From positions 124,001 through 188,000 of the forward strand of contig JALDZX010000027.1 in assembly GCA_022813865.1 (NCBI GenBank): a stretch of 64,000 nucleotides of DNA, written 5' to 3'. The position numbers were made by a program, and so were the translations under genes. Every line of letters begins with the position of its first letter. Within the stretch, counting starts at the first letter, position 1. Below, piece after piece: positions 301 to 53,179 of the stretch. This stretch comes from Xylographa opegraphella (lineage: Eukaryota). The notes below the pieces were generated by a model. It saw nothing but the letters and a program-made list of their open reading frames with translations. It had not been told where the DNA came from and did not search any database.

Positions 301-1001
301 CTATGCGACCAGCTCCACTATCCCTCCCGCTTCCTTGATCTTCCGCTCCGCCTCCTTGCTAAAATACCGCGCCCTCACCACCATTGGTATCTCCGGTAAC
401 CTGCCCTTGCCCAACACCTTCGAGTATCCGAGCGGTAGTAAATCGAGCACAGGTGCCATGTCGCCTTCCTTGTTCTTCAGGTACTCGTCACGCTTCTCGA
501 CAGGGACGAGGGACCAGAGCTATTCGTTGCAACAAGAAACAGTCAGCCTCCATTATATTTATCTTCACTCCGGAAGCCCCCAGTCCACTTCGACAAACTT
601 CCATCCCAAACAACACATCATATCCAACAATTACGAGCCCTTTCTGGAACAACAAATTCGCAACCGCTTGGAGAGAGTCGCACCTTATCAAGATTGATCA
701 CCGGCTTCCAGAACTGGTTCTGCAGCTTGTGGAAATACCGCATGCCGACCTTTCCGAAGTACCCGGGATGGTACTTGTCGATGTTCGTCCGGTGGTGATG
801 TTGTCCACCAGCCATACCGCGACCACCGGGATGCTTGCGGTGCTTGCCCACTCGGCCGTGACCGGCGGAGACATGACCGCGGCTGCAGTGGAAATCAGAG
901 ATTAGCGTCTGCTTGGGCATGTAGCAACGGTGTCGAGGAGTATATCGGTGGTACACGGGGGCTCCTTACTGCTTGCGCGTTTTACTCAATCGGCTAGGCA
1001 T
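301..1001 (-). CDS. RPL28: 60S ribosomal protein uL15 (L27a / yeast L28), 3 exons
   Basis: The spliced translation reads [62 protein letters not shown]...[16 protein letters not shown] at 1001-999, TAG at 303-301, two GT-AG introns. Confidence 0.97.
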
Positions 1002-1315: not shown

Positions 1316-3338
1316 TCAGTAGTAGCGTCTACGTACGATTACCACTTCGGAACCCTCAGAGCTGGAAGACACATCTGTTGATCTAGTAGATCGTGTAGTG
1401 GGATCGGAATAATCTGAACGGTATATCATCGGTGAGCTTGGAGCCGAGACTGGATCCGAAAGTTCCGAACGCCGTTGTACGTAGGAATAAGCACTGCTGC
1501 TCGCAGAAGTAGAAACGGACTCTAATGGTTCATCGACTTTCAATCGCTTGAACGGGCGTGTCTGAGTTTCGATCTTGCAAAAGCTGATTGCCAGATTTGA
1601 CGGGGGTTGATCTGGCTTTGCACTCGTGACAATGATTTTGAAACTCTTATGATTCCTTTCGACGAGCTCAGAGAGTTTCGACAACAACGATTCGCCTTCG
1701 TCTGAAAGAAACTCCAATTGACATAGGTCGAAGCGATCGATGATGATGTACAGCGGCTCGACGATGGTCACAATACGTTCGAAAATCCTCCATACTTGTT
1801 CGAAAGACTCAGCACGTTGAAACAGTCTCGTATCAAACAGTTCCGGGTTCTCCATGACGAGAGTCGGCTGCTTTTCTATGATCCGGCAGATGAGTCGTTT
1901 CACTAGCTGCGTATCCGTATAGCTTTCTCCACGAGGACGGTCACACAGTGCAAAGGATAGAAGAGCGTCTTGAGCCTGAGACGCGCGGATCACATCAAGC
2001 GAAAGTTCGGTGACCCAGGTATCTCGATTTGATGTCGGAGCGGATATCCACAGTATTGAATTGGCTGGAAGTCTTGTCCAGAATGTCAGGTAAAGGAGAA
2101 TATCATTCGCCTCCCATCGATCCTTTGGGGATAGACGGAAGTTTACATCCTGCCAGAGACGCATCTCGTCCGCAATGTTCTCGACATTATGGACAAGGGC
2201 ATTCTGGAGATTTGAGGACGCCTGTACCGCTTGTACTTTGTTCCACTCTACTGATGTATTAGCTATTATAGCACATATCAGGGCTTCGTAGATGATCAAC
2301 TGACTGCTAGAGAATGCTCTGATTTCATCTACCTCACTGCTCAAGTCTGTCATATTGCCTACTGCAGCATTCATGATCCGATACATCCCAGCGATCACTA
2401 ATGGTATGTTAACCATCAAAAATTCGCGGAAAGGCAGCTGAACACACCGGCGCCAGTTCCTTCAACAGTCTCCTTCACACTTTGCTGCTCTGCGTAATGA
2501 GATCGTTCTGCTAAATCATGGAGCCGTTTAGTCAAGAATGTCAATTTTGCAAATTCCTTGGAAAATTCGTATTTGGATCTCGGGAACATAGCGTCGACAA
2601 GCTTGCCTAATGTCTGGTCAGATGTGTTCCAACACCAATACAAGCCACTGTACCGAGTCGCCCGAGTGCATAGTATGACGCAGCATGCTCCAGAAGAGTG
2701 AGCACGTCTGCGTAGATGGTGGCTAAAAGAATCTTCATTTCGCTAGTTGGGAAAAGGTCCCCATACGAGCGTATGTCGGGCAGACATTGATGAAATTGGT
2801 CGAAGTAATCTAGAACCTCTTTCTGCTTTTCGCTCTTCGTGACGACAGCCTGTCGAGAGTTTAGGGTGAATGCGCTTGAGGGCTTCCCCCAAGCTCACCT
2901 TGAAGATGATCATGAGGATACCATAGGGAACTGCATACTCAGGGCTTTGAGGAACCAAAGGCGCCACCAGCTCCGACATACGCACCGCGAAGCCACAGAA
3001 GGTGTTGGCAACGTTTCCAATACTCCTAGAATATTTCGATGTGGCTCCCTTTTTTTCTTGGATCGTGCGCTCCATGTCCCGAATGAAGGTTTCCACCGCG
3101 GCGTATGATTTGCCGTTGTCAAATAGTTGGCGGTCTTCTCGAAGAAGCCTGGCAGTGAGCCTTGCGCTTGTGCCGTGACAAGCATCCAAAGCTATTGCGT
3201 AGAGTCTGGTAGATCGCAGCACATTGGCCACCGTACAAAGCATAGCATCAAGCAGGTAGGGTCATGAACTCACACGTCGTCCGAGCCGGAGACATACCAC
3301 TGTGTGGCAGAAGCACTGGTCGCAGGCACTGAAGCCAT
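1316..3338 (-). CDS. Fungal NLR/STAND-like protein: helical N-terminal domain (DUF7708-like) plus degenerate NACHT/NPHP3_N-like P-loop domain, no C-terminal repeats
   Basis: Spliced model MASVPATSASATQWYVSGSDDV|LYAIALD...PQSPEYAVPYGILMIIFK|AVVTKSEKQKEVLDYF...YGDLFPTSEMKILLATIYADVLTLLEHAASYYALGRL|... followed by ILWISAPTSNRDTW (Walker A position), LYIIIDRFDLC (Walker B position) and FKIIVTS. At least 4 GT-AG introns. Confidence 0.7.
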
Positions 3339-3883
3339 TCGTGCCAGCTCCGAGTACGTCGTACAGGCTTTCGCAATCAGGTATCGATTGAGCGAAACTA
3401 CAACATCAAACGACGAACGAGCGCACGCCCGTTCTTTCAATCTCTATCGTATGATGACTGCGTTACCAATCTCCATTTGATCGCGACGCTCATCGATATC
3501 GACGAGTCAAGATGTCTCGAGACTGGGCAAGTGAGGTTGAGGATATTGTGGCCACAAGCTCTTCGTTGCTCGTCGGGACGAGAATGGGCTTCAGCATACG
3601 TTCTCGAGAATTCGGAGCACTTGTCTGTCACCCTGGTCGCTTGGCAATCCCGCCACGAAAGCCACCTCGCAAGTAAAGGCTGCCCTTGGCCGACGACAGC
3701 TCAAGAGTGGGCGACGATTGACCCGACCGTACAGAGACGTTTGACTGTTTCCTTCACCTCACAATATACATGTATGACGTACGTCATTAGACTACGTGCT
3801 TTGTACATTTCTCTCTTTCTATGATACGACTTGGTATATATAGTAAGCAGCAAGCGTGATTCGCTTGATATTATTCGCTGCCA

Positions 3884-6545
3884 ATGGAAGTCGAGAAATC
3901 GGCCGACCCAGACATACCACGAGCAGGTAGCCGCTCACCCGAACACTTGGACGTCGACGATGAATCTGGCGTTACGTCTGTCAGGCAACGCCGCAGTAGA
4001 TCCTCCTCGCGATCACTCGAAGAAGCTCAATTACATCGAAATTCTCCGCCACCCCTGGAGTCTCTCCGACATGGCAGATTTAACGTCAGACGCCAGCAAT
4101 CTGAAATTACGGACAACGAGGTGTATATATATTTTCTCACCAGGGTGGATGACGAAGACCACATCCACATTGTGAGTCCTTTGGTTGTTGCAATAATCAA
4201 AGATGTTGTGAAGTTTTATCCTGCCGCCATTTTCAGGAGAGGCAGCGTTGAGCTAGTCTCTCCGTTCAGCCTTCTCTACCATTACTTTGATGAGATGAAG
4301 GCGAGAGTTTCTGCGGAAAGCTCGTCTCCAGAGTTGGTGGAACATTTCGGTTTCATCGAACGCTTCGTGGCAAAAAACTTGTCGGAGCGGTTCCAAGAGA
4401 TACGGGAATCACTTATGACGGATAACTCCGTGTCTTTCGAAGATCTTTGGGCATTATACAAACCGGGTGACTATGTGGTCATCAAAGACGGCTTACACCA
4501 AAAGCTCGTTCTCATGTTTACAGACATTGAGGAGAAGAAAGTTCGACAGCCATATATAAATCGCCCGTTTCCTTCTTATATCGTCATGGCCTGGTGTGTG
4601 GTCTGGAATCCATCGGAGAAACTTTTCCAGCGACGCAGCTGGAAGTTGAAAATCCCAAGATATCCTGGCAAGCGTCACGTGGTTTCTTTACCCGTCTATC
4701 CTCTTCACGCCGTATCCAAGGCTGAACAAGAAAGCCTTCTTGCACATCTCAAGGATCGTGGCGAGCGATGGAGATCCTTGGTTTCTGGCCCGGCTCTGTG
4801 CTTCATGCATACAGGTCCCGCCTTCAAGAAAATAGCTCGAGACGAGGACATGAGAAGAGACAGGTATCGACAAGATGGAGAACAAACTACGAATGTAAGC
4901 GTCCTGGTCTTTGTCTCCCACTCCCAAAGCTGACTCACAAAAAGCTTGTGGGAAGGGTCATTGTGGAAGAACAAAAATTAAGTGCGTATTCTCGAACTGC
5001 TTACTTCATCTTCTTCTACCAAAGAGCCATCAGGCATATCCTTGGCGTGTGTAGCAGCGCCTATGTGTACTTGATATAGATGTTAGAGCTCCCTATTTGC
5101 GCTGACTTTGAGATGTTCTGGTAGTGGATCTGGCAATGATGTCAACAGCCGTCAAGCAAAATTCAAGTGCACATGCTGTTGCTGGCTTAGAGTGCGTATC
5201 CTAGAAGTCCCTCTTTCCCACTTTGCATCTTTGCAAAGCCACAAACCATCATTCCGGAGCACGACAGCAATGTCTTGAATTTTCGAGATTGACATGATGG
5301 CTCCCTGGTTTCACTCGAACGAGCGATGCTAACGCTGAAGTCTTTCACTAGTGACCGGCCTGAATTCAAAGATTGGGATGACGTTGCTCCGGACACGGTC
5401 TTCAGCGACGAGCAAAAGCTTCTATGCCCTCCGACAATTGCTTGCTTCGACATCACCACATCGAAGTGGTATGTCGTGGCGGTGGACAATCTGAGACCTG
5501 TGACCTGGAACACGACCGCCATGAACCATCTCGTCCTTGCGGAATCCCGAAAGACTCTACTGAGGGCTGTCATCGAACAACACACGAAGAAGGAGGTTGG
5601 TGATATCATTCAGAACAAGGGCATAGGACTGGTCATTCTCCTCCACGGCCCGTCGGGCGTCAGTTCGCCTGCTCTCAAGCAGCAAAATATCTGCTGATGA
5701 CGGAGTATCTAGGTTGGCAAGACGCTCACAGCCGAGAGCGTAGCGGAGTCGACGAAGCGTCCCCTCATTCCATTGAGCATTCAAGCCTTGATATCCGACG
5801 GCAAGCGGTTCGAGTCCGATCTGGGCCTGTTGTTCAGCAACGCTCGGCGGTGGAATGCTATCCTTCTTCTCGACGAGGCGGACATCGTACTTGAAGCCCG
5901 ATCATTTGAGGACATCCACCGCAATGGCATCGTTTCAGGTATGTGCCGTTCTTTACCTACCTTATCTTGGCTGGTTGCTGACGCCATTTAAGTCTTTCTC
6001 CGGCAACTCGAATATTACGGTAGGGCCGCAACAATACTTTAGCTCTCCCAACCACGAGCGAAGGCGCTAACCCTCTATCAGGCGGGATCTTATTCCTCAC
6101 CACCAACCGCATCAGCACCATGGACGATGCCTTCCAAAGCCGCATTCAGATCGCCTTCGATTACAAGCCTCTCGACCGGACCATACGCCGCCAGATCTGG
6201 TCCAACCTCATCGCGAGCGACGCAATCGAGATCGCGGACGATGCACGGGACTCGATCGACGAAGCCCTGGACGACCTGTCGCGCCTGGATCTCAACGGCC
6301 GCCAGATCCGCAACACTCTCAACCTGGCGGAGTCGCTCGCCAACGACGACTTCGCCACGCCGGGCCAGCTGCAGCGCGACCACATCACCAAGGCCGCCGA
6401 CGCGACGCTGAAGTTCAAGAAGATGTTCAACGAGGCGAAGAAGACGGCCAAGGGCAACGCGCGCACGGTCTGGGCGCCGTATTCGTCTGCGGGCGAGCCG
6501 CCAGCGCAGGTCACCCAGAGGGTTAGCTCGTGGGATCTTTCTTGA
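3884..6545 (+). CDS. Fungal AAA+ ATPase (DUF7025-like N-region, AAA core and lid), multi-exon
   Basis: Contains VSFEDLWALYKPGD; GLVILLHGPSG|VGKTLTAE (Walker A split by an intron at about 5659-5712); WNAILLLDEADIVLEARS (Walker B); GILFLTTNR; MDDAFQSRI (Arg finger) and LNGRQIRN (lid). All catalytic motifs are intact. Confidence 0.9.
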
Positions 6546-6659
6546 CGTTGACGATATAGTCAGGAGCTCGGTTGAGATTTGTATATAGTAGCCATTTCAG
6601 CTCGCACGTATTGTTTTGTGGGCGGCAGCTGATGCGCTGAAGGAAGAACGATGGTGAAT

Positions 6660-6778
6660 GGAGGAAAAGGTCAGGAGGAGAATGAGGAGGATGAAGAATA
6701 GGATGAGGAGGAGGATTATGAGGAGGATGAGGAGGAGGAGGTGGTGGTGGTAGTGGTGTTGGAGGTGGAGGAAGAGAA
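6660..6778 (+). repeat. Degenerate (GAG/GAT/GTG)n purine-rich trinucleotide microsatellite
   Basis: Sequence gaggaggatgaagaataggatgaggaggaggattatgaggaggatgaggaggaggaggtggtggtggtagtggtg, located downstream of the AAA gene. Confidence 0.75.
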
Positions 6779-8029
6779 AGAGCTGTAATCAAATAATACC
6801 GAAAAGGGAGTATAAGCTCTCAAACAAGCGAGCGACTAGTATGGTGACCGAACGGCTCTACAGCTGCGTCCCTAATACAACCGTAACGACGTGTCTGCTC
6901 AGCGGATATCGATGCGAAACTGAACATCTTGAAGACAGGTGGGAGGAAGCGCTGGAGTGGACCTGCTGATATATCTTCACTCATGTAGTTTAAGCATTTG
7001 ATAGAAGCGCTGCACCGAGTCCTGGGCGAAGCAACCGTCCCCAGGATCCCTCCCTCGATAATAGAAGACATCAGAAAGCCCTCCAAATCTCAGCCCTGAT
7101 AGATACCTTTCATGCGGTGTGGACTCCAATGAGAGAAAGCAGCATACCCATTGCCTTTATGCTTTATGCCTCACAAACTCTCTCGGGCGAAGGGTAACAT
7201 CTGACAGATCATTGACATTCAAGCCCCACTGCACGATTTCATGGAAAGACTTTGTGGATAGGTGTGAAGAGCTGATGAAATGCAATGCATAGTTAGGGAA
7301 CGGGGCAATAGAAGAAAAAATCCGGACGAGATGGAGCGGATATTAGCACGGAGGTGATGTGAGCTCGGGGATAACTGGATGACAGGGGTTAGCAGTGAAC
7401 ATGAAAACCGCTCCATATAACGTATGATGCGAGCAGACGGGCCTGCTGCTTTAGGAGGATAGTATGGAGTATCTGGGTTGCGATATGATGGTATGGACCG
7501 TATGATTTGAAGGTAGGCATGGAGAAGTTTCCGAGATGGGGTCAGTCTGGGAGGCTGAAGTATTCTGCTGAAGCGGTTGAGGCGGGATCGATGGATGTCG
7601 CTGTGGTCACCGTGCCCTCCGACGAGTTCAAGAGGTCTAAGTGTAGCTGGAGGCTTTTGTTTTTGACCCTAGTACTCGAAAGACAAAGCTTTGCCTCTTC
7701 GGGTTGAAGACACGTCTTTTGTCGACTGGAGTTATTAACCTTCCTCGGGAAGAATGTTATCTCCCAGGTGATACATGAACGCTATGAGATGAAAATGTAG
7801 CAGCGGGTTCTGGCACTCAAGCCAGCGATCTTAATCCCATATTAACGATAGTTCTTCCGTCAATGATATCTTCTACCACATTTCCATGCACAACGTCGAC
7901 AATTCTGATATGAAGATCGAAAGCTTGATGCCTGCTTACTTTGGGAGACACTTTGCCATCTATAACTAGTGAGCAGTCGCAACGAGTTTGGCTTAGTGCC
8001 GAGTTATGTCAGCCATCAAGGCTCAATGG

Positions 8030-11000
8030 CTATGCTGTTTTGCCCTCAAAGAAACCAGCGACACTGCTCAGAATCTCAGGAAACTGCTCCTTGCCGTCTC
8101 TGTTCCGAAGACTCTTCTGAATCCACGCCGGCAGCTTCTCCTGGATGCGCGGCGTATTATACCTCCGGTCCAACATGACGATGGTCGCATAGTCATTCTG
8201 GTGACGGATAGCCCTCCCCACGCTCTGGTTGACAGCCCTCATACACGCGTTTTCATAAAATTGACGACCGGCCACCTTGCCGTCTGCGGCGTTTCCACCC
8301 CTTGACAACGTCGCGCTCTCGATGTATTCCAGCTTTGCCTTCCATTCAGCGGTGTGAATGTTCGGAAATGGTAGGCCGACGACAACGACGCCACGGCCTA
8401 GCTTATCGGAGAAGTTGATTCCTTCTGACATTTTGCCGCCTATTACAGAAAGCAGCAAAGCGCCTTTGCCAGCTTGGACCGCCTGTGTATAGTCCCGCAA
8501 CACATCCTCTGCACCATTGCTGTCTTTGCTTTCTTGAAAGACTGCCTTTTGGTTGGATAGCTCACTCCAAATACTGCGCGGATTTTTCAGCCCAGATTTC
8601 CATCGAGAAGTAGTCTGCTCGAGGTATGCATAGCTGGGAAAGAACACGACCATACCGTAAGGAATTACCTGACTGAGCTTCAAGATGCAAGTGCCCAGGG
8701 CGTCGATCATACCTGGTATGTTTCGCTTCTCGAAGGTAAAGTCAAAATCAAGCTCCGCTGGCCCTTTGGTTATTGGCAGGGCGAGAAGGTTCTCCACTGG
8801 TATTACGTGTCCGCAACTGAGTAGTTTTATCCGCTCAGAGCTAAGGTAAGGGAGGAGATGATGAGTGTAGTCCTCCATCTGGACACTGTCAGTACGACAG
8901 TATCAGTGCGTTCGATCGATGAGCTCACTGGCGACATGGTCCCACCAGCTAGAATTACCGCGCGCGCTTCCTCTACGATATCTTTGAAGTGGTAAGTCGG
9001 GTCAAGCAACATGTATTTAAGAGATAGGCCGTTTCCTTCATCACGTGAGAAGAAGTAGCGGCCGTCGGCTGCTGGGTTCACGAGTGTTTGGAGGAAACTC
9101 TGGACTTGAGTCAGGACTGGCATGGTTGACGTTGGCTTTTCGAACTTGGCATCCTTGCTCTGTTTTTGATACATGTCATATCCGTCCACCTTACGTGCGA
9201 GCCTGCTTTCTTGTAGGTATCGCACTACCTTGTACAAATTGATCTGGTCCACTCCCTTCCCAGCCATCAGATCATTGATGTCGACGAGACCGTCTGCAGA
9301 CTTGCTTTTCGCTGATATGCCGGTCAAGTACGCGATTAAGGAGTCTACGAGTCTCACAACCTGGGTAACGTAAACTCTGTTTCTGCCTTTCAGCTTGTTT
9401 CGAAAGCGTTGGAGGTAGACCCCTAGCTGGTTACGGGAGCGCTCCAGCTGGCTTAAGAAGATCTTGACTGAATACATGCTAGTGATCGCATCCATTAAGT
9501 TATGAGCTTCATCGATAATTACCACATGGCCTTTGAGAGTAATATCCAGAGCTTCTCTTGCAGTTTTCTGAAGAAGCAAAGGATAAGGCAGTGTGACAAG
9601 CTAAAACATGATCAGTAAAGCGTGATATCGCACGAGTTTTGGGGGTAAGTGGTCTGATCGAGTATTGCTACATACCTCGCTCGGCTTGATACCTGCTCGG
9701 GATGCGTAGTACGGGCAGACTCCGACTCTTTTCCCTAGTTCACCCATGTCCTCTATATCGCGTACTCTTGCCAATGCATGGTCACGAAAATCGTTCACTA
9801 GAGTCTCATTCTCTTTGTTTGGTATGAACGGACATCTGTCGTCTTGGGAAGTCCCTGGTTGCTGTAGCTCTAGACATCTTTCGTTGATCATGGATAGGTT
9901 CTCGAGTCGTGACACTTTGGGGTTGATGCAAAGATTTTTTCGAGAACCCAAGGACAAATATTTCAATTCCGCCAGCGGTTCTGTCTTTGATTTCAAATCT
10001 CCTGATCCAGTCATACCTTGCAGAGCGAATGGAATATTCACCCTTCTGACTTCATTGGCAAATTGTGTGAGTTGTGAATGTGTCCTAGAGCAGTAGAATA
10101 TCTTGGGTTCGTCGAGGGCTTCCACGTCGTCTGCTTCGTTCATTGGTTTCACAATCATGCCAAGCCTATTCCCAAGATTAGCTACTGAAGACCGGTACAC
10201 TGTAGGGTAGACAGCACACCTGTTGAGAAGCTCGAAGCTTTTCGTTGAGATACCACCAGATTCTTCCGGGTCGGCATTGACCTGGGGCTTCGTGATCTCT
10301 TCTTCACTATCATAATCATCCAGCAGGTAGGACGCTTCCTTATCTGCAGCTGCGCTATTGTGCTCGTTTGGATTGAACTTCTGGAAGAGCTCAGCTGCTA
10401 TCCAGAGACAACTAAGTCGTACGCACAATTCTTTTCTGATATGATTCGCCATTCTCATAGCGCAACTTCTGCTGACGTTCCTTTGCCCTTATTTGCGAGA
10501 GTCTTCCTTCAAGAACTTGCTGTTTTCTTCTAATCAACCCCAATCTTTCCTCTTTTCTATGCGCGATAACCCAAGCGGGCTCTTCGTCATCTGCTTCATA
10601 TCAGTGAGATTTCAGCATCTACCCCTACACGATCCTTACGATTGTCATCTCCTAGGGAGGCATGTAATTTTATTTGCTGGTCTCTAAGCCATGTCATTGA
10701 GCCACAAATCAGACTAAGCGATTTGCCCTAGGATCCTACGAGTTAATTTTGTAATTGAGCAGAGGTTATAAACCCGGCATTAAGGACTTGAGTGAAAAAA
10801 TGCATCAAGTCACCTGCGGAGAGTTTTGGTAATAGTCGAAAAAAATAAAGCCATTCTGGAACAGACGCAGACGAGATAACCACGACAGTCACGAAATAAG
10901 CATAGACATACAGTACCTATGGATTCCTTCAGTTTGGAATCGATGAGAGACATTCAATGAAGGTACCTGTCGGGGACTCGAAGATACCCACTTGACCATC

Positions 11001-11800: not shown

Positions 11801-14552
11801 ATGGATAGCGAAACCGGATATCCTCAGCCGCATCTGGGGGCCACTTTCTATCCAGGGGGGGTTGATGATTTCTACATACCTGAACTTGTCTCTCCTGCTC
11901 CGCAAAGGTCAGTTATTGCGCCGGTGGATACTTCAATGACGTTCAAGGGCTATGCTAACGCTGTCGGTACAGGTCAATGCCTGAAGTGCCTCAACAAATC
12001 CAAGATAATCTCGCACATTTCGAGCTTGACGCCAGTTCTCCACAGAGTCCTTCCGGACCGCATTTACTAGAATCAATGCATTCTAGCCAGATTGGCGCAT
12101 CTTATAGCAACAGTGATGCGGCGCCGCCTCGAACGCAATCTTCAGGACCCGCACGTTCCAGATTCCAGAATAACGGGCCTAGTGGACGAGAACCTAACGG
12201 ACAGCGGCCGCATGAACCCCAGGACGTAGTGGATCAGCCGTCCTTCTCGCCTTTTCCGCAACTACGTAACAGACCGCCGAATGTTCCCCCGTCGGATGGT
12301 GAGAAAGAGGCTATACTTGAAAATGCTCGGGAGGCCGTCTTGCACTCAAACGATCCTGAGATGCAATTGACGTGGGCACAAGACGCCTTGAGTTATGTCG
12401 AGATAGCAATGGGGAACGAAGCACGGATGTCAGAATTGCGAAGTTCTCGATCAAGAACACCACGCATTGAGCATCAGCTTCGAGTCGACGCCGTGAATAT
12501 CGTGACATTCCTTGCAGATCAACACCATCCTAAAGCAGAGTTCCTACGAGGCATGTGGCTGGAGTTTGGCAAGCTTGGATTTCGAATGGACAAGAAGGAA
12601 GCATATCGATGTTATTCGCGAGCTGCACAAGGGGGCTATATTAGGGCAGAGTACCGGATCGGGATGCAGTTCGAGAACTCTAACGATGCTGTAAATGCTA
12701 TCAAACACTTCTCGCTTGGCCTTGTGGGACACGACTCAGCATCGAACTATGTATGTTCTGATATCTTAGTCATTTTAGAAGCGGGAAGAAGGCTAACTGT
12801 CCTAGCGCTTGGGGATGATGGCGCTTCTAGGACAACATGGTCAGCCACTAGATTACCAAAGGGGAATAGAAATGATCAGATTCTCTGCTGAGACTGCGGA
12901 CGAAAATGCCCCTCAAGGTGCATTTGTAAGCTTCACCATGCCACTATCGGCTGGACCGATTGGATTCAGCTAATATCGTCTCAGGTGTATGGAATGCTTC
13001 AAGCGCGTGAGCTTCCACAAGTTTTGGTACCCGAATCGTTGCTACCACTGGACTTGGATAGTGCTCTCTACAACATTGAAAAAGCTGCTTATTTAGGGTT
13101 TGCCAAAGCGCAGACAAAGATGGGAGTGGCATACGAACTTTGCCAATTGGGCTGCGAGTTTGATCCTACTTTGTCGCTCCACTACAATAACCTTGCCGCT
13201 AGACAGGGGGATCCAGAAGCAGAGATGGCTATCAGCAAATGGTTCCTATGCGGTCATGAAGGCATTTTCAAGAAAAATGAAGAGATGGCATTCTCTTATG
13301 CGCAACGAGCTGCGCAAACTGGTCTCCCAACAGCTGAATTTGCATTGGGATATTTCTACGAAGTTGGCATACATGTTACTGTAAGCATCAAAGAGGCAAG
13401 AGTTTGGTATAGCAGAGCTGCGGAACATGGTAACAATGATGCCGCTGCTAGAATTGAAGGAATAACTCGATCAAAGACACTGTCGAGAAAGGATCATGAA
13501 CAAATCGCTGTTGCGAAAATTAATTCCGCACGAGCTTCCCGCCTTGGCAACAAGCCACAGCGCTTGATGCGGCCTACGATGCCAGCCATGCCAGAGGTTC
13601 CGCCAATGCCTCAGCTACCATATAGGACGGTACGTATGCCCGATGTCGGATCCTCGTTCCAGGGATATGCAAACCATGGGCCATATTCTCCGCAAACTCC
13701 AACGTCGTCATATACAGGCTCTGCCTATATTGGATCGATAACTCCGCAACCAAGACCCCAATCCTCGAACACCTATAACAACCTTGGCCCAGCTGCTGCC
13801 ACAGGCACACTCCCTGCAAACGGTGGCTATGGTATGACTTCCTCTAGCCCGATTGTTCCTCAAAGACCATATTCAGCGACCCCCAATCCTACTTACGGGT
13901 TCGGACGAGGCGGCATAAGTCCCCACCCGCAACCCAGTACTCCAAAGCCTCCAATGACACCGAATCCGCAAGGTTATCGACGGTCATCTGAAAATGTACC
14001 GCCAGGCCCGGTAACTACTCAACCGGGTTATGATGCCGGACAGAAACCGCTACCTCAAATTCAACTCGGCTTCACTGCACCCCCAGATCTTTCTGGGGCT
14101 GACCGTAAGAAGCGGTCACAGCGCTCCGACAATCCAGTGACTGGATATCAGACTACCGGAAGAGCTAACGTCCCTCATCTTGATCGAACATCATCAAGAC
14201 CTCCAGTTGCACCTCAAGGCCAATTCCAAGGCAAAGAAGGCCGCGTGCAAACTTCGCACCTTACGACGTCCTCGCCTGCAGCCGGCAATAGACCACTACG
14301 AAACGAGCCCCAACCATTAAGACCCGCCGCTGGATCTTCTGTATCAAGTACGCCTACACCTGCTGCTCCTAGTATCTCGACTAGCACCCCAACTCCAACA
14401 GCGAGCAGCACTCCGGGAGGACGGCGACCTGGTAAGGGACCCAGTACTTTTGAAGAAATGGGTGTGCCTCAGGGGAAAAAGGAAGATGACTGCGTAAGTT
14501 CCACGAAGGATTGGGGAATGTCTCGCTGACCTAAACACAGATTGTTATGTGA
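11801..14552 (+). CDS. Sel1-repeat chitin synthase regulator / activator of C-kinase (ACK1/CHS4/SKT5 family) with C-terminal CaaX (CIVM)
   Basis: NDPEMQLTWAQDAL followed by several Sel1 repeats (AEYRIGMQFE, AQTKMGVAYE, AEMAISKWFLCG, AEFALGYFYEVG), a Pro-rich tail, and GPSTFEEMGVPQGKKEDDC|IVM*. Confidence 0.88.
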
Positions 14553-52171: not shown

Positions 52172-53179
52172 TGGAGAAGCGGGCTGTTCCTGGACCGTTA
52201 TGCTCGAAGAGCAGTGGACGTAGAGAGAGAACTTGACAGGCAGAGAATGAGACCTTCAATCAAGAAAAAACGTGAAGACATCCGATAAAGCATGAAGCAT
52301 GCGTGTGGTACAGCCATCAATGATCGCGGCCCGCGCCCAGGCCTGCAGCTCGACAACGCATGACGACGAGCAGGCCAGACTGGTTTCAGATATCAAACCG
52401 ACGATACGCGGCGTCGACCACGAACTGATTCATCGAGAGTCCATCATTATCTGAGTCGTCGAATCATATCAACGGCATTCGTAAGACCCACGGCAGCCAA
52501 GCATTTGTGCATCTGGTCGTCTTCATGGAAGAAAGGGGCCAGACGGCTCGCTTCTGTCGCAGCCATGTCTTATCCGCAATCACCGCACACCGACGTACGT
52601 TAGCTAACGGCTTGCCCAGAATATGCTGATCCGTCGGCGAACACGGGCGGTCGGCTCGTTGAAGTGGATCGTCAGGATTCGAGACGCCAAGTGAATAAAT
52701 CCTGCGTTAAGGAGGTGCTTAGGATCACTGCTTCATGCTGTTGCCAGCCTTGGTGTTGTATCAGGAAGTAGTTCTCTGGAACTTGATCTCGCAAGCTCGA
52801 ATTAACTAGGTAGACTACCTTAAGTTAGTAACAGGTGGGGCAGGCTGCTGTGGTGATCACTCGGAGTGCCTATTTTAGGGGCGCGAACACGAAAACTGCC
52901 CCAAGTGAAAGTGAATGAATGATAAGGTATGCTTGGTATGCTTGATTGATATATCTCCTCCCGAGGTTGTATACAATTCAGCGCAATAGATCTATTGCTT
53001 GATATTCTGTGGGCATTGTGGCGGCATCTGTGAAGGCAATACTGTACCATTTGGGCGCTGTCTCCATATTCTTATTATCAACCCTCTATTTTTACATCGT
53101 ATTGGTGCCCCAGTCCGGGGGTGGATTGAATTCCCGGGTTTTGTATCATAAGTTGAATGAACATCATTCGAACTCAAGC

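Follow-up and report, generated by a model that had tools for sequence, protein, structure and literature searches.

A predicted NLR-derived pseudo-NTPase gene adjoins a DUF7025-type AAA+ ATPase gene in Xylographa opegraphella and in two distant metagenomic loci

A 64-kb stretch of the genome of Xylographa opegraphella, a lichen-forming ascomycete, contains two divergently transcribed genes that we call A and B (Table 1); this whole stretch is referred to as the window. From its sequence, the product of gene A is predicted to be a constrained pseudo-nucleoside triphosphatase (pseudo-NTPase) of a distinct Ascomycota family that derives from NOD-like receptors (NLRs) headed by a DUF7708 domain. 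Gene B encodes a AAA+ ATPase with a DUF7025 domain, and a B-family gene was the immediate neighbour of the A-family gene in both distant loci with readable flanks (2/2). The pair has been retained through changes of its neighbours. Since its orientation has changed as well, a shared promoter does not seem to be the selected feature, and the comparison of loci points to a pairing that is old and has persisted without need for one. Tentatively, we interpret A and B as partners of long standing that are inherited together and share a function, and not as chance neighbours.

Results

Gene A belongs to a family of predicted pseudo-NTPases

A profile of the C-terminal domain of A, searched against 1.84 billion representatives, yielded 856 matching proteins with E ≤ 1e-3, of which 135 reached E ≤ 1e-10 and 63 reached E ≤ 1e-30. 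The best 116 rows of this search were without exception proteins of at most 645 aa, and long canonical NLRs entered the list only from an E-value of 3e-13 downward. In a Pfam scan of eight full-length members of the A family, DUF7708 was detected in all eight and NPHP3_N in seven, and a winged-helix domain (GPIID_WHD), a lid or repeats were detected in none of the eight. The NPHP3_N scores of the full-length family members were 30–55 bits, compared with 120–143 bits in canonical relatives. Among five canonical relatives scanned, P0123, P0125 and P0135 contained GPIID_WHD, and ANK or TPR repeats were present in P0125, P0130, P0135 and P0139. The exon translations of A itself gave no match to a repeat family (WD40, ANK or TPR) in Pfam. 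A preliminary description of the locus had presented A as a sensor-less NLR. The lack of a WD, ANK or TPR sensor is borne out by these scans and by the short length of the best profile matches, but A is less than a sensor-less NLR, because the winged-helix arm of signal transduction ATPases with numerous domains (STAND proteins) is gone as well.

Motif columns were counted in an alignment of 56 A-family members and 18 canonical relatives. The lysine of Walker A was present in all 18 canonical relatives and in none of the 56 family members, in which the column is occupied by Asp (35), Gln (9), Glu (5), His (3), Asn (2), Gly (1) or Arg (1), in agreement with the catalytic degeneracy that had been claimed for A. 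The pattern G....GK[ST] was found in 0 of the 86 A relatives listed. Sensor-1 arginine, part of the TSRP motif, was retained in a single family member (1/56) compared with 17/18 canonical relatives. The Walker B aspartate was conserved in both groups (55/56 and 18/18), and the residue following it was Arg in 52/56 members of the A family versus Ala, Gly or Ser in all 18 canonical relatives. The final Glu of Walker B was found in 14/56 and 17/18 sequences, respectively. With Arg in the [GAS] column and the Glu mostly lost, the A family departs from the Walker B consensus hhhhD[GAS]hDE as it is given in PMC12258605. The paired changes from Lys to Asp and from Ala to Arg suggest that a salt bridge may fill the old phosphate site.

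Strong conservation within the A family was observed for a loop, LWIGGxSGNQDSWVTE with the core GNQDSWVTE, and for an upstream motif, FRLSPKDHWExNGIL. Comparison of two metagenomic copies, L004 and L002, yielded a dN/dS (ratio of nonsynonymous to synonymous substitution rates) of 0.28 over the domain, and A is under purifying selection. Within the Xylographaceae, A orthologs share 69–79% identity. Because of the purifying selection and the family-specific conserved motifs, we do not regard A as a decaying relic.

The protein encoded by gene A and MMC13_003615 (P0001) of Lambiella insularis share 79% identity across 547 aa. The AlphaFold model of the Lambiella ortholog has a mean predicted local distance difference test (pLDDT) score of 81.7 and comprises a helical region (residues 25–291), the last helix of which is very long, an alpha/beta core of five strands (residues 338–498) and a disordered tail from residue 517; the fold stops at about residue 515 and the chain is disordered to residue 595. 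In a structure search, residues 295–503 of the model matched nucleotide-binding domains of the STAND or initiator type, namely Avs3 (Z 12.3), Cdc6/ORC (Z 11–12), NRC2 (Z 10.1) and Apaf-1 (Z 9.4). Foldseek against the PDB returned generic AAA+/ORC matches alone, with template modelling (TM) scores of about 0.2. For the helical N-terminal domain, two designed helical bundles were retrieved at Z 8.1–8.8, which is within the noise for helical models. Pfam detected no HORMA domain in A or in the eight full-length family members, and scans of prokaryotic and viral contig collections found no A relatives. Based on the motif losses throughout the family, the absence of a sensor and a winged-helix arm, and the fold match to the nucleotide-binding domains (NBDs) of STAND proteins, A is best described as a putative conserved pseudo-NTPase derived from DUF7708-headed NLRs.

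Genes of the A and B families are neighbours in distant loci

Scanning metagenomes with the A-family profile yielded five loci. L001–L003 are 1.7–2.7 kb long, contain the A gene alone and are too short for an assessment of linkage, and readable flanks were available in L004 and L005. Adjacency in other genomes had been put forward in the preliminary description as a test of the pair, and these two loci bear it out. The L004 locus covers 20.7 kb of a contig of 312 kb. Its A gene (+ strand, ~8.9–10.7 kb, domain identity 45%) and its B gene (− strand, 8.39–6.49 kb) are arranged head-to-head, with putative ATGs about 0.25 kb apart; the B protein is 37% identical over 670 aa and has intact GPSGVGKT and LLLDEAD motifs. 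In L005 (5.8 kb), A (+ strand, 3015–4751) and B (− strand, truncated where the contig ends, stop close to 4985) lie tail-to-tail at a distance of about 230 bp, and the earlier suggestion of a shared bidirectional promoter as the conserved feature had to be abandoned on account of this arrangement.

The other neighbours in L004 are a gene similar to flavin-containing monooxygenases (FMO-like), a Tc5 helix-turn-helix (HTH) fragment, a family-2 peroxidase (peroxidase_2) and a Mid2-like open reading frame (ORF), and neither RPL28 nor CHL1 is present there. When the entire window was compared with all loci by tblastx, A and B matched, and the sole other match was a stretch of 24 aa at 52937–53008. 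No second B-family copy was found in the remainder of the window or of L004. The Tc5 transposase HTH ORF occupies positions 2912–3715 of L004, about 3 kb from the pair and amid accessory-type enzymes.

In a tree of the A domain comprising 59 family rows and six canonical outgroups, the A family formed one clade (Shimodaira–Hasegawa-like approximate likelihood ratio test, SH-aLRT, 100). The window sequence (5-row clade, support 100), L004 (13-row clade, 100) and L005 (5-row clade, 97, within another branch of 20 rows) were well separated, and L005 was placed on the other basal branch of the tree than the window and L004. Because the three paired loci lie in three separate clades, the adjacency of A and B would either be as old as most of the A family or have arisen repeatedly.

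Among closer relatives, A and B of Lambiella (MMC13_003615 and MMC13_003617) are located on one 645,950-bp contig, and in all three ENA assemblies with an A ortholog (3/3) the N-terminal ORF of B was found on a contig of the same size (167431, 90404 and 2672399). Pfam scans of 20 relatives detected no A–B fusion protein. Outside the pairs, the window and L004 contain about 31 ORF-level genes, none of which belongs to the B family, and this limits the frequency of the family to less than roughly 9%. At this bound, chance adjacency in three independent lineages would occur with a probability below about 1%, and at an assumed B-family frequency of 1% with a probability of ~1e-5. A complex prediction for A (P0001, residues 11–595) with the N-terminal half of B (P0009, residues 76–470) gave a score of 0.00, which allows no verdict either way.

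In the DUF7708 domain, an intron follows immediately on the ...MIIFK codon (window position 2899), and its position is identical in the window and in L001, L003, L004 and L005, which are all four metagenomic A genes that cover the site. The common position is consistent with one ancient gene lineage.

Gene B is predicted to be an ATP-competent AAA+ ATPase

DUF7025, AAA and AAA_lid_13 follow each other in this order in B of the window, in its orthologs and in L004. Walker A (GPSGVGKT) and Walker B (ILLLDEAD) are both present in B, as expected for the intact AAA+ ATPase that had been described; in L004, Walker A is not interrupted by an intron. The nearest solved relatives of B are Rix7, VAT and p97, which are remodellers of the classic clade. 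The pore-loop-1 residues K-Y-V-G of Rix7 D2 align with T-D-E-gap-D in B of L004, and the same segment reads S-D-G-K-R-F-E in the window. Judged by its sequence, B looks like an ATP-competent classic-clade AAA+ protein, unlike a standard threading unfoldase. The predicted monomer structure of B has a mean pLDDT of 46.5.

All six introns of the gene B model are of the GT..AG type. Exon 1 is 100% identical to MMC26_004403 (P0007) and the whole 712-aa model is 97% identical. The sole difference from the deposited 735-aa model is the donor of intron 2, where our model agrees with the one from X. soralifera. At 4982–5124, the deposited P0007 keeps 23 residues (SAYSRTAYFIFFYQRAIRHILGV), and the X. 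soralifera model and the GT..AG model have an intron; either choice could be right. A further observation concerns the deposited B models of X. soralifera (P0008) and Lambiella (P0009), which proceed from ...AKKH directly to VGKT and thereby omit about 23 residues, corresponding to the beta-1 strand and the first half of the P-loop, that are encoded in frame in the window (5599–5712) and in L004. This omission is probably a splice-site mis-call in the annotation; if it were real, those orthologs would be ATPase-dead.

Gene models and surroundings

The coordinates of the two genes, their domains and the flanking genes are compiled in Table 1. Exon modelling confirmed the two divergent start codons and the spacer given in the preliminary description, its naming of the flanking genes was correct, and Pfam, the hidden Markov model check it had proposed, returned the domains that it had assigned to A and B. 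The Arg/Ser-rich ends that it had noted are visible in the translations of both proteins.

Table 1. Positions of genes A and B, their domains and motifs, and the flanking genes in the window
Feature	Position	Strand	Details
Gene A	1316..3338	-	ATG 3338, stop 1316; 6 exons, 583 aa; DUF7708 helical domain, predicted pseudo-nucleotide-binding domain, disordered Ser-rich tail
Gene A, exons	3338-3274, 3205-2899, 2849-2654, 2606-2448, 2397-2305, 2247-1316	-	exon model and ortholog alignment
A, DUF7708 (Goodbye-related) helical N-terminal domain, exons 2-4	2448..3205	-	Pfam exon 3 E 1.3e-10; P0001 81.5 bits, residues 87-230; model all-helical at residues 25-291
A, NPHP3_N/NACHT-type alpha/beta nucleotide-binding fold	1622..2062	-	Pfam NPHP3_N E 1.9e-9; structure search match at model residues 295-503
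A, pseudo-P-loop ILWISAPTSNRDTWV	2012..2056	-	Asp (2023-2021) in Walker A lysine column
A, Walker-B-like strand LYIIIDRFDLC	1721..1753	-	Asp kept, followed by family-specific Arg
A, Ser-rich C-terminal tail, predicted disordered	1316..1560	-	ends VVIVRRRYY; tail alignment in close relatives; ortholog model pLDDT <50 at residues 517-595
Spacer between divergent start codons	3339..3883	.	545 bp
Gene B	3884..6545	+	ATG 3884, stop 6545; 7 exons, 712 aa; DUF7025, AAA, AAA_lid_13
Gene B, exons	3884-4894, 4945-4981, 5125-5191, 5352-5658, 5713-5938, 5993-6019, 6082-6545	+	middle-exon choice after X. soralifera model P0008
B, DUF7025	4406..4708	+	Pfam E 2.3e-16, 60.3 bits; residues 175-275 of exon 1
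B, Walker A GPSG/VGKT	5647..5724	+	split by 54-nt intron 5659-5712
B, Walker B ILLLDEAD	5860..5883	+	AAA E 3.5e-8, 34.4 bits
B, AAA_lid_13 (fungal AAA+ lid)	6171..6443	+	Pfam E 6.4e-9, 36.5 bits
Flank, RPL28/uL15, first exon	618..920	-	E 9e-39 to yeast RPL28 chains
Flank, CHL1-type helicase	8030..10488	-	DEAD_2 and Helicase_C_2

The five introns of gene A are all of the GT..AG type and 47–68 nt long, the fifth (2304–2248) is backed by the ortholog alignment, and the translation contains a single, terminal stop. Pfam scored DUF7708 at 41.7 bits (cut-off 25, exon 3 alone) and NPHP3_N at 38.4 bits (cut-off 24.8) in the exon translations of A, and the NACHT family remained below its cut-off with 17.6 bits (cut-off 26.7). 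Both A and B are single-copy within the window. No 100%-identical protein was retrieved for gene A in the protein collection search (matches of 197–629 aa), whereas the deposited B model did turn up, and the genome as deposited may lack an annotation of gene A or contain a very different model of it. The Ser-rich tail of A and of its orthologs P0001–P0004 is followed by a short hydrophobic-basic end (VVIVRRRYY, VRIVRRRRY, VVYVVRRD and IIVIK; window 1316–1345), which could be a docking or degron-like tag. In distant A relatives, the C-terminal end is a basic stretch, not this hydrophobic-basic motif.

Just 3' of gene B, a purine-rich GAGGAGGA/GGTGGTGG low-complexity tract extends over window positions 6640–6780, with a GC skew of 0.37 in 6501–7000, and the 1.5-kb interval that separates B from the CHL1-type gene contains no convincing ORF. 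A 545-aa ORF (12892–14526), situated downstream of the helicase, encodes Sel1 repeats and has no relation to the A/B pair.

Discussion

That A and B are an ancient pair, inherited together and functional as such, is the interpretation we prefer, tentatively and at slightly less than an even chance. An alternative is that the two genes are mere neighbours, a truncated NLR relic next to a member of a large AAA+ family, and that their adjacency reflects residual synteny or a common preference for accessory regions. The sample is tiny, with two informative distant loci, close relatives are of little help, as synteny among them is the normal case, both families have many members in Ascomycota, and the pair in L004 stands beside a transposase fragment and accessory-type enzymes. 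All of this would fit with mere neighbourhood, but the three loci with known context belong to different deep clades of the A family, the pair persists while its flanks differ, and adjacency was kept although the orientation changed in one locus. In addition, no other B-family copy was found in about 75 kb of surrounding sequence, and the purifying selection on A, together with its family-specific motifs, is not what a relic would be expected to display. We therefore consider mere neighbourhood unlikely, although it deserves to be taken seriously.

Several points weigh against a functional pair. The very small sample counts here as well, as two distant loci could be examined, and the chance estimate of ~1e-5 rests on an assumed frequency. 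Orientation was divergent twice and convergent once, and therefore no shared promoter can be obligatory. The locus tags of the Lambiella partners are two apart, and one gene model may lie between them. P0005 and P0006 are two further A relatives, whose contigs measure 3,021 and 21,677 bp; for these, no B fragment was found on a same-size contig in a word-limited search with window-type and L004-type N-termini only, and B may have been overlooked there or may truly be lacking. Where K-Y-V-G of pore loop 1 in Rix7 D2 aligns with B, no aromatic residue is present in B, and threading or unfolding of A by B is therefore doubtful. This weakens the remodelling of A by B that the preliminary description had proposed. 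Finally, what links the pair to immunity or cell death is family resemblance only.

If A and B are nevertheless a functional pair, A would have descended from DUF7708-type fungal NLRs, with loss of the repeats that act as sensor, of the winged-helix arm and of the residues that contact the nucleotide, and it would have retained a strongly conserved pseudo-pocket and the Goodbye-related helical N-terminal domain. In this state, A may no longer be able to switch itself with a nucleotide, and B could supply the ATP-dependent step in trans by holding A in, or freeing it from, an inactive conformation or oligomer. In this view, B might be either the activator of A or a restraining 'antidote'. The helical DUF7708 domain would serve as the output and might, given its published kinship with HeLo/MLKL bundles, be directed at membranes or have to do with cell death; the link between DUF7708 and Goodbye comes from an automatic Atlas cluster name alone. 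Tight linkage may have been kept because a single partner would be useless or harmful. What the comparisons above show is the domain anatomy, the family-wide loss of motifs, the purifying selection on A and the adjacency in three deep clades; a mutual action of the A and B proteins, the direction of control, and an immune or cell-death role are inferred beyond these.

A functional pair may also have no role in immunity. For example, A could act as an adaptor, or as a regulator, and direct B to a substrate of housekeeping or stress processes, in the manner of the cofactors of Cdc48/p97-type ATPases. Such a function would be in line with the position of the single-copy pair of the window between core genes, with the loss of every receptor feature of an NLR from A, and with the general remodelling ATPases that are the nearest solved relatives of B. 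The identity of A orthologs within the Xylographaceae is likewise unlike the pattern of diversifying selection. However, the sole recognisable relatives of A are fungal NLRs with DUF7708/Goodbye-type heads, and the A family is patchy, with just six word-sharing homologs for this lineage among 5.8 billion clusters. A non-immune function appears rather unlikely to us. A poison–antidote pair, in which the free helical domain of A is harmful and restrained by B (or the reverse), separation is lethal and the two genes possibly form a selfish or addictive unit, would explain why adjacency survives changes of neighbourhood and orientation, as expected if linkage and not co-transcription is selected, and would fit with the kinship of Goodbye-like domains to pore-forming HeLo/MLKL bundles (PMC9815663), but it is improbable, as the window has core genes on both sides of the pair and no sign of mobility or drive, with transposon ends and repeats sought only by Pfam on flanking ORFs.

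A more specific form of the functional pair can be envisaged as an ancient cassette that spread through Ascomycota, in which the AAA+ ATPase takes over from the nucleotide switch that a truncated NLR has lost, and gates an MLKL/HeLo-related helical executioner, which would be held by a pseudo-pocket filled by the protein itself through the P-loop Asp and the Arg next to Walker B. Taken as a whole, this scenario is speculative, and we would not expect all of it to hold.

Several known systems resemble the A–B pair in part. Fungal NLRs that combine a DUF7708/Goodbye-like domain with NACHT (NPHP3_N) share the Pfam families of the N-terminal domain and of the NBD with A and are the next-best matches of the A profile; in contrast to them, the proteins of the A family lack repeats, the winged-helix/lid arm, the Walker A lysine and, with one exception in 56, the sensor-1 arginine, and they do not exceed 645 aa. 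NWD2/HET-S, which acts in amyloid signalling, and PLP-1/SEC-9 are examples of linked pairs of a fungal NLR and its partner. Like A and B, they consist of two adjacent co-inherited genes, one of which is NLR-related. They differ in that the partner B is a AAA+ ATPase and not a prion-motif effector or a SNARE, and in that A brings its own long N-terminal domain. Comparison by eye of the N-terminus of A with the C-terminus of B, made without an amyloid motif model, revealed no common short motif.

In plants, the head-to-head NLR pairs RGA4/RGA5 and RRS1/RPS4 combine a P-loop-independent sensor with a P-loop-dependent helper. The window and L004 resemble them in the divergent arrangement and in having one dead or dispensable and one active nucleotide site, whereas B is not an NLR, A has neither an integrated decoy nor a sensor, and the orientation is not conserved, as seen in L005. 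Bacterial HORMA–TRIP13 modules of cyclic-oligonucleotide-based anti-phage signalling systems (CBASS) encode a AAA+ remodeller next to an immune signalling protein, and A–B is similar in the genetic linkage of a AAA+ ATPase to a signalling protein that might be switched or reset by it. In contrast to these modules, A contains no HORMA domain, B belongs to the classic-clade AAA proteins of DUF7025 type and lacks the pore-loop aromatic residue, and the pair is eukaryotic.

As described by Wojciechowski et al. (2022, PMC9815663), Goodbye-like domains have a four-helix core in common with HeLo and MLKL, and displacement of their N-terminal extension is speculated to be necessary for oligomerisation. 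The same article treats linked NLR–effector gene pairs as well known for amyloid signalling. Non-canonical P-loops were already noted in fungal NLR candidates, and Goodbye-like domains are given there as domains of unknown function (Dyrka et al., 2014, PMC4986451). No paper was found under DUF7025, DUF7708, PF22942, PF23232, PF24809 or AAA_lid_13, and no mention of a AAA+ partner was found in the fungal NLR surveys consulted, supplements aside. The A–B pair probably acts as a two-gene unit that has so far not been described.

Fungal genomes encode hundreds of NLR-like proteins, very few of which have a known partner or mechanism. The A–B partnership provides a testable handle on two large uncharacterised families, the DUF7708 pseudo-NLRs and the DUF7025 AAA+ ATPases. 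If the two genes do form a functional pair, A would be a pseudo-NTPase that originated from an immune receptor and was retained under selection, and the pair would be an example of such pairing in fungi outside amyloid signalling. Should the cassette exist as envisaged, it would represent a new design of a fungal cell-death or immune switch, in which a STAND-derived scaffold is driven in trans by a classic AAA+ ATPase.

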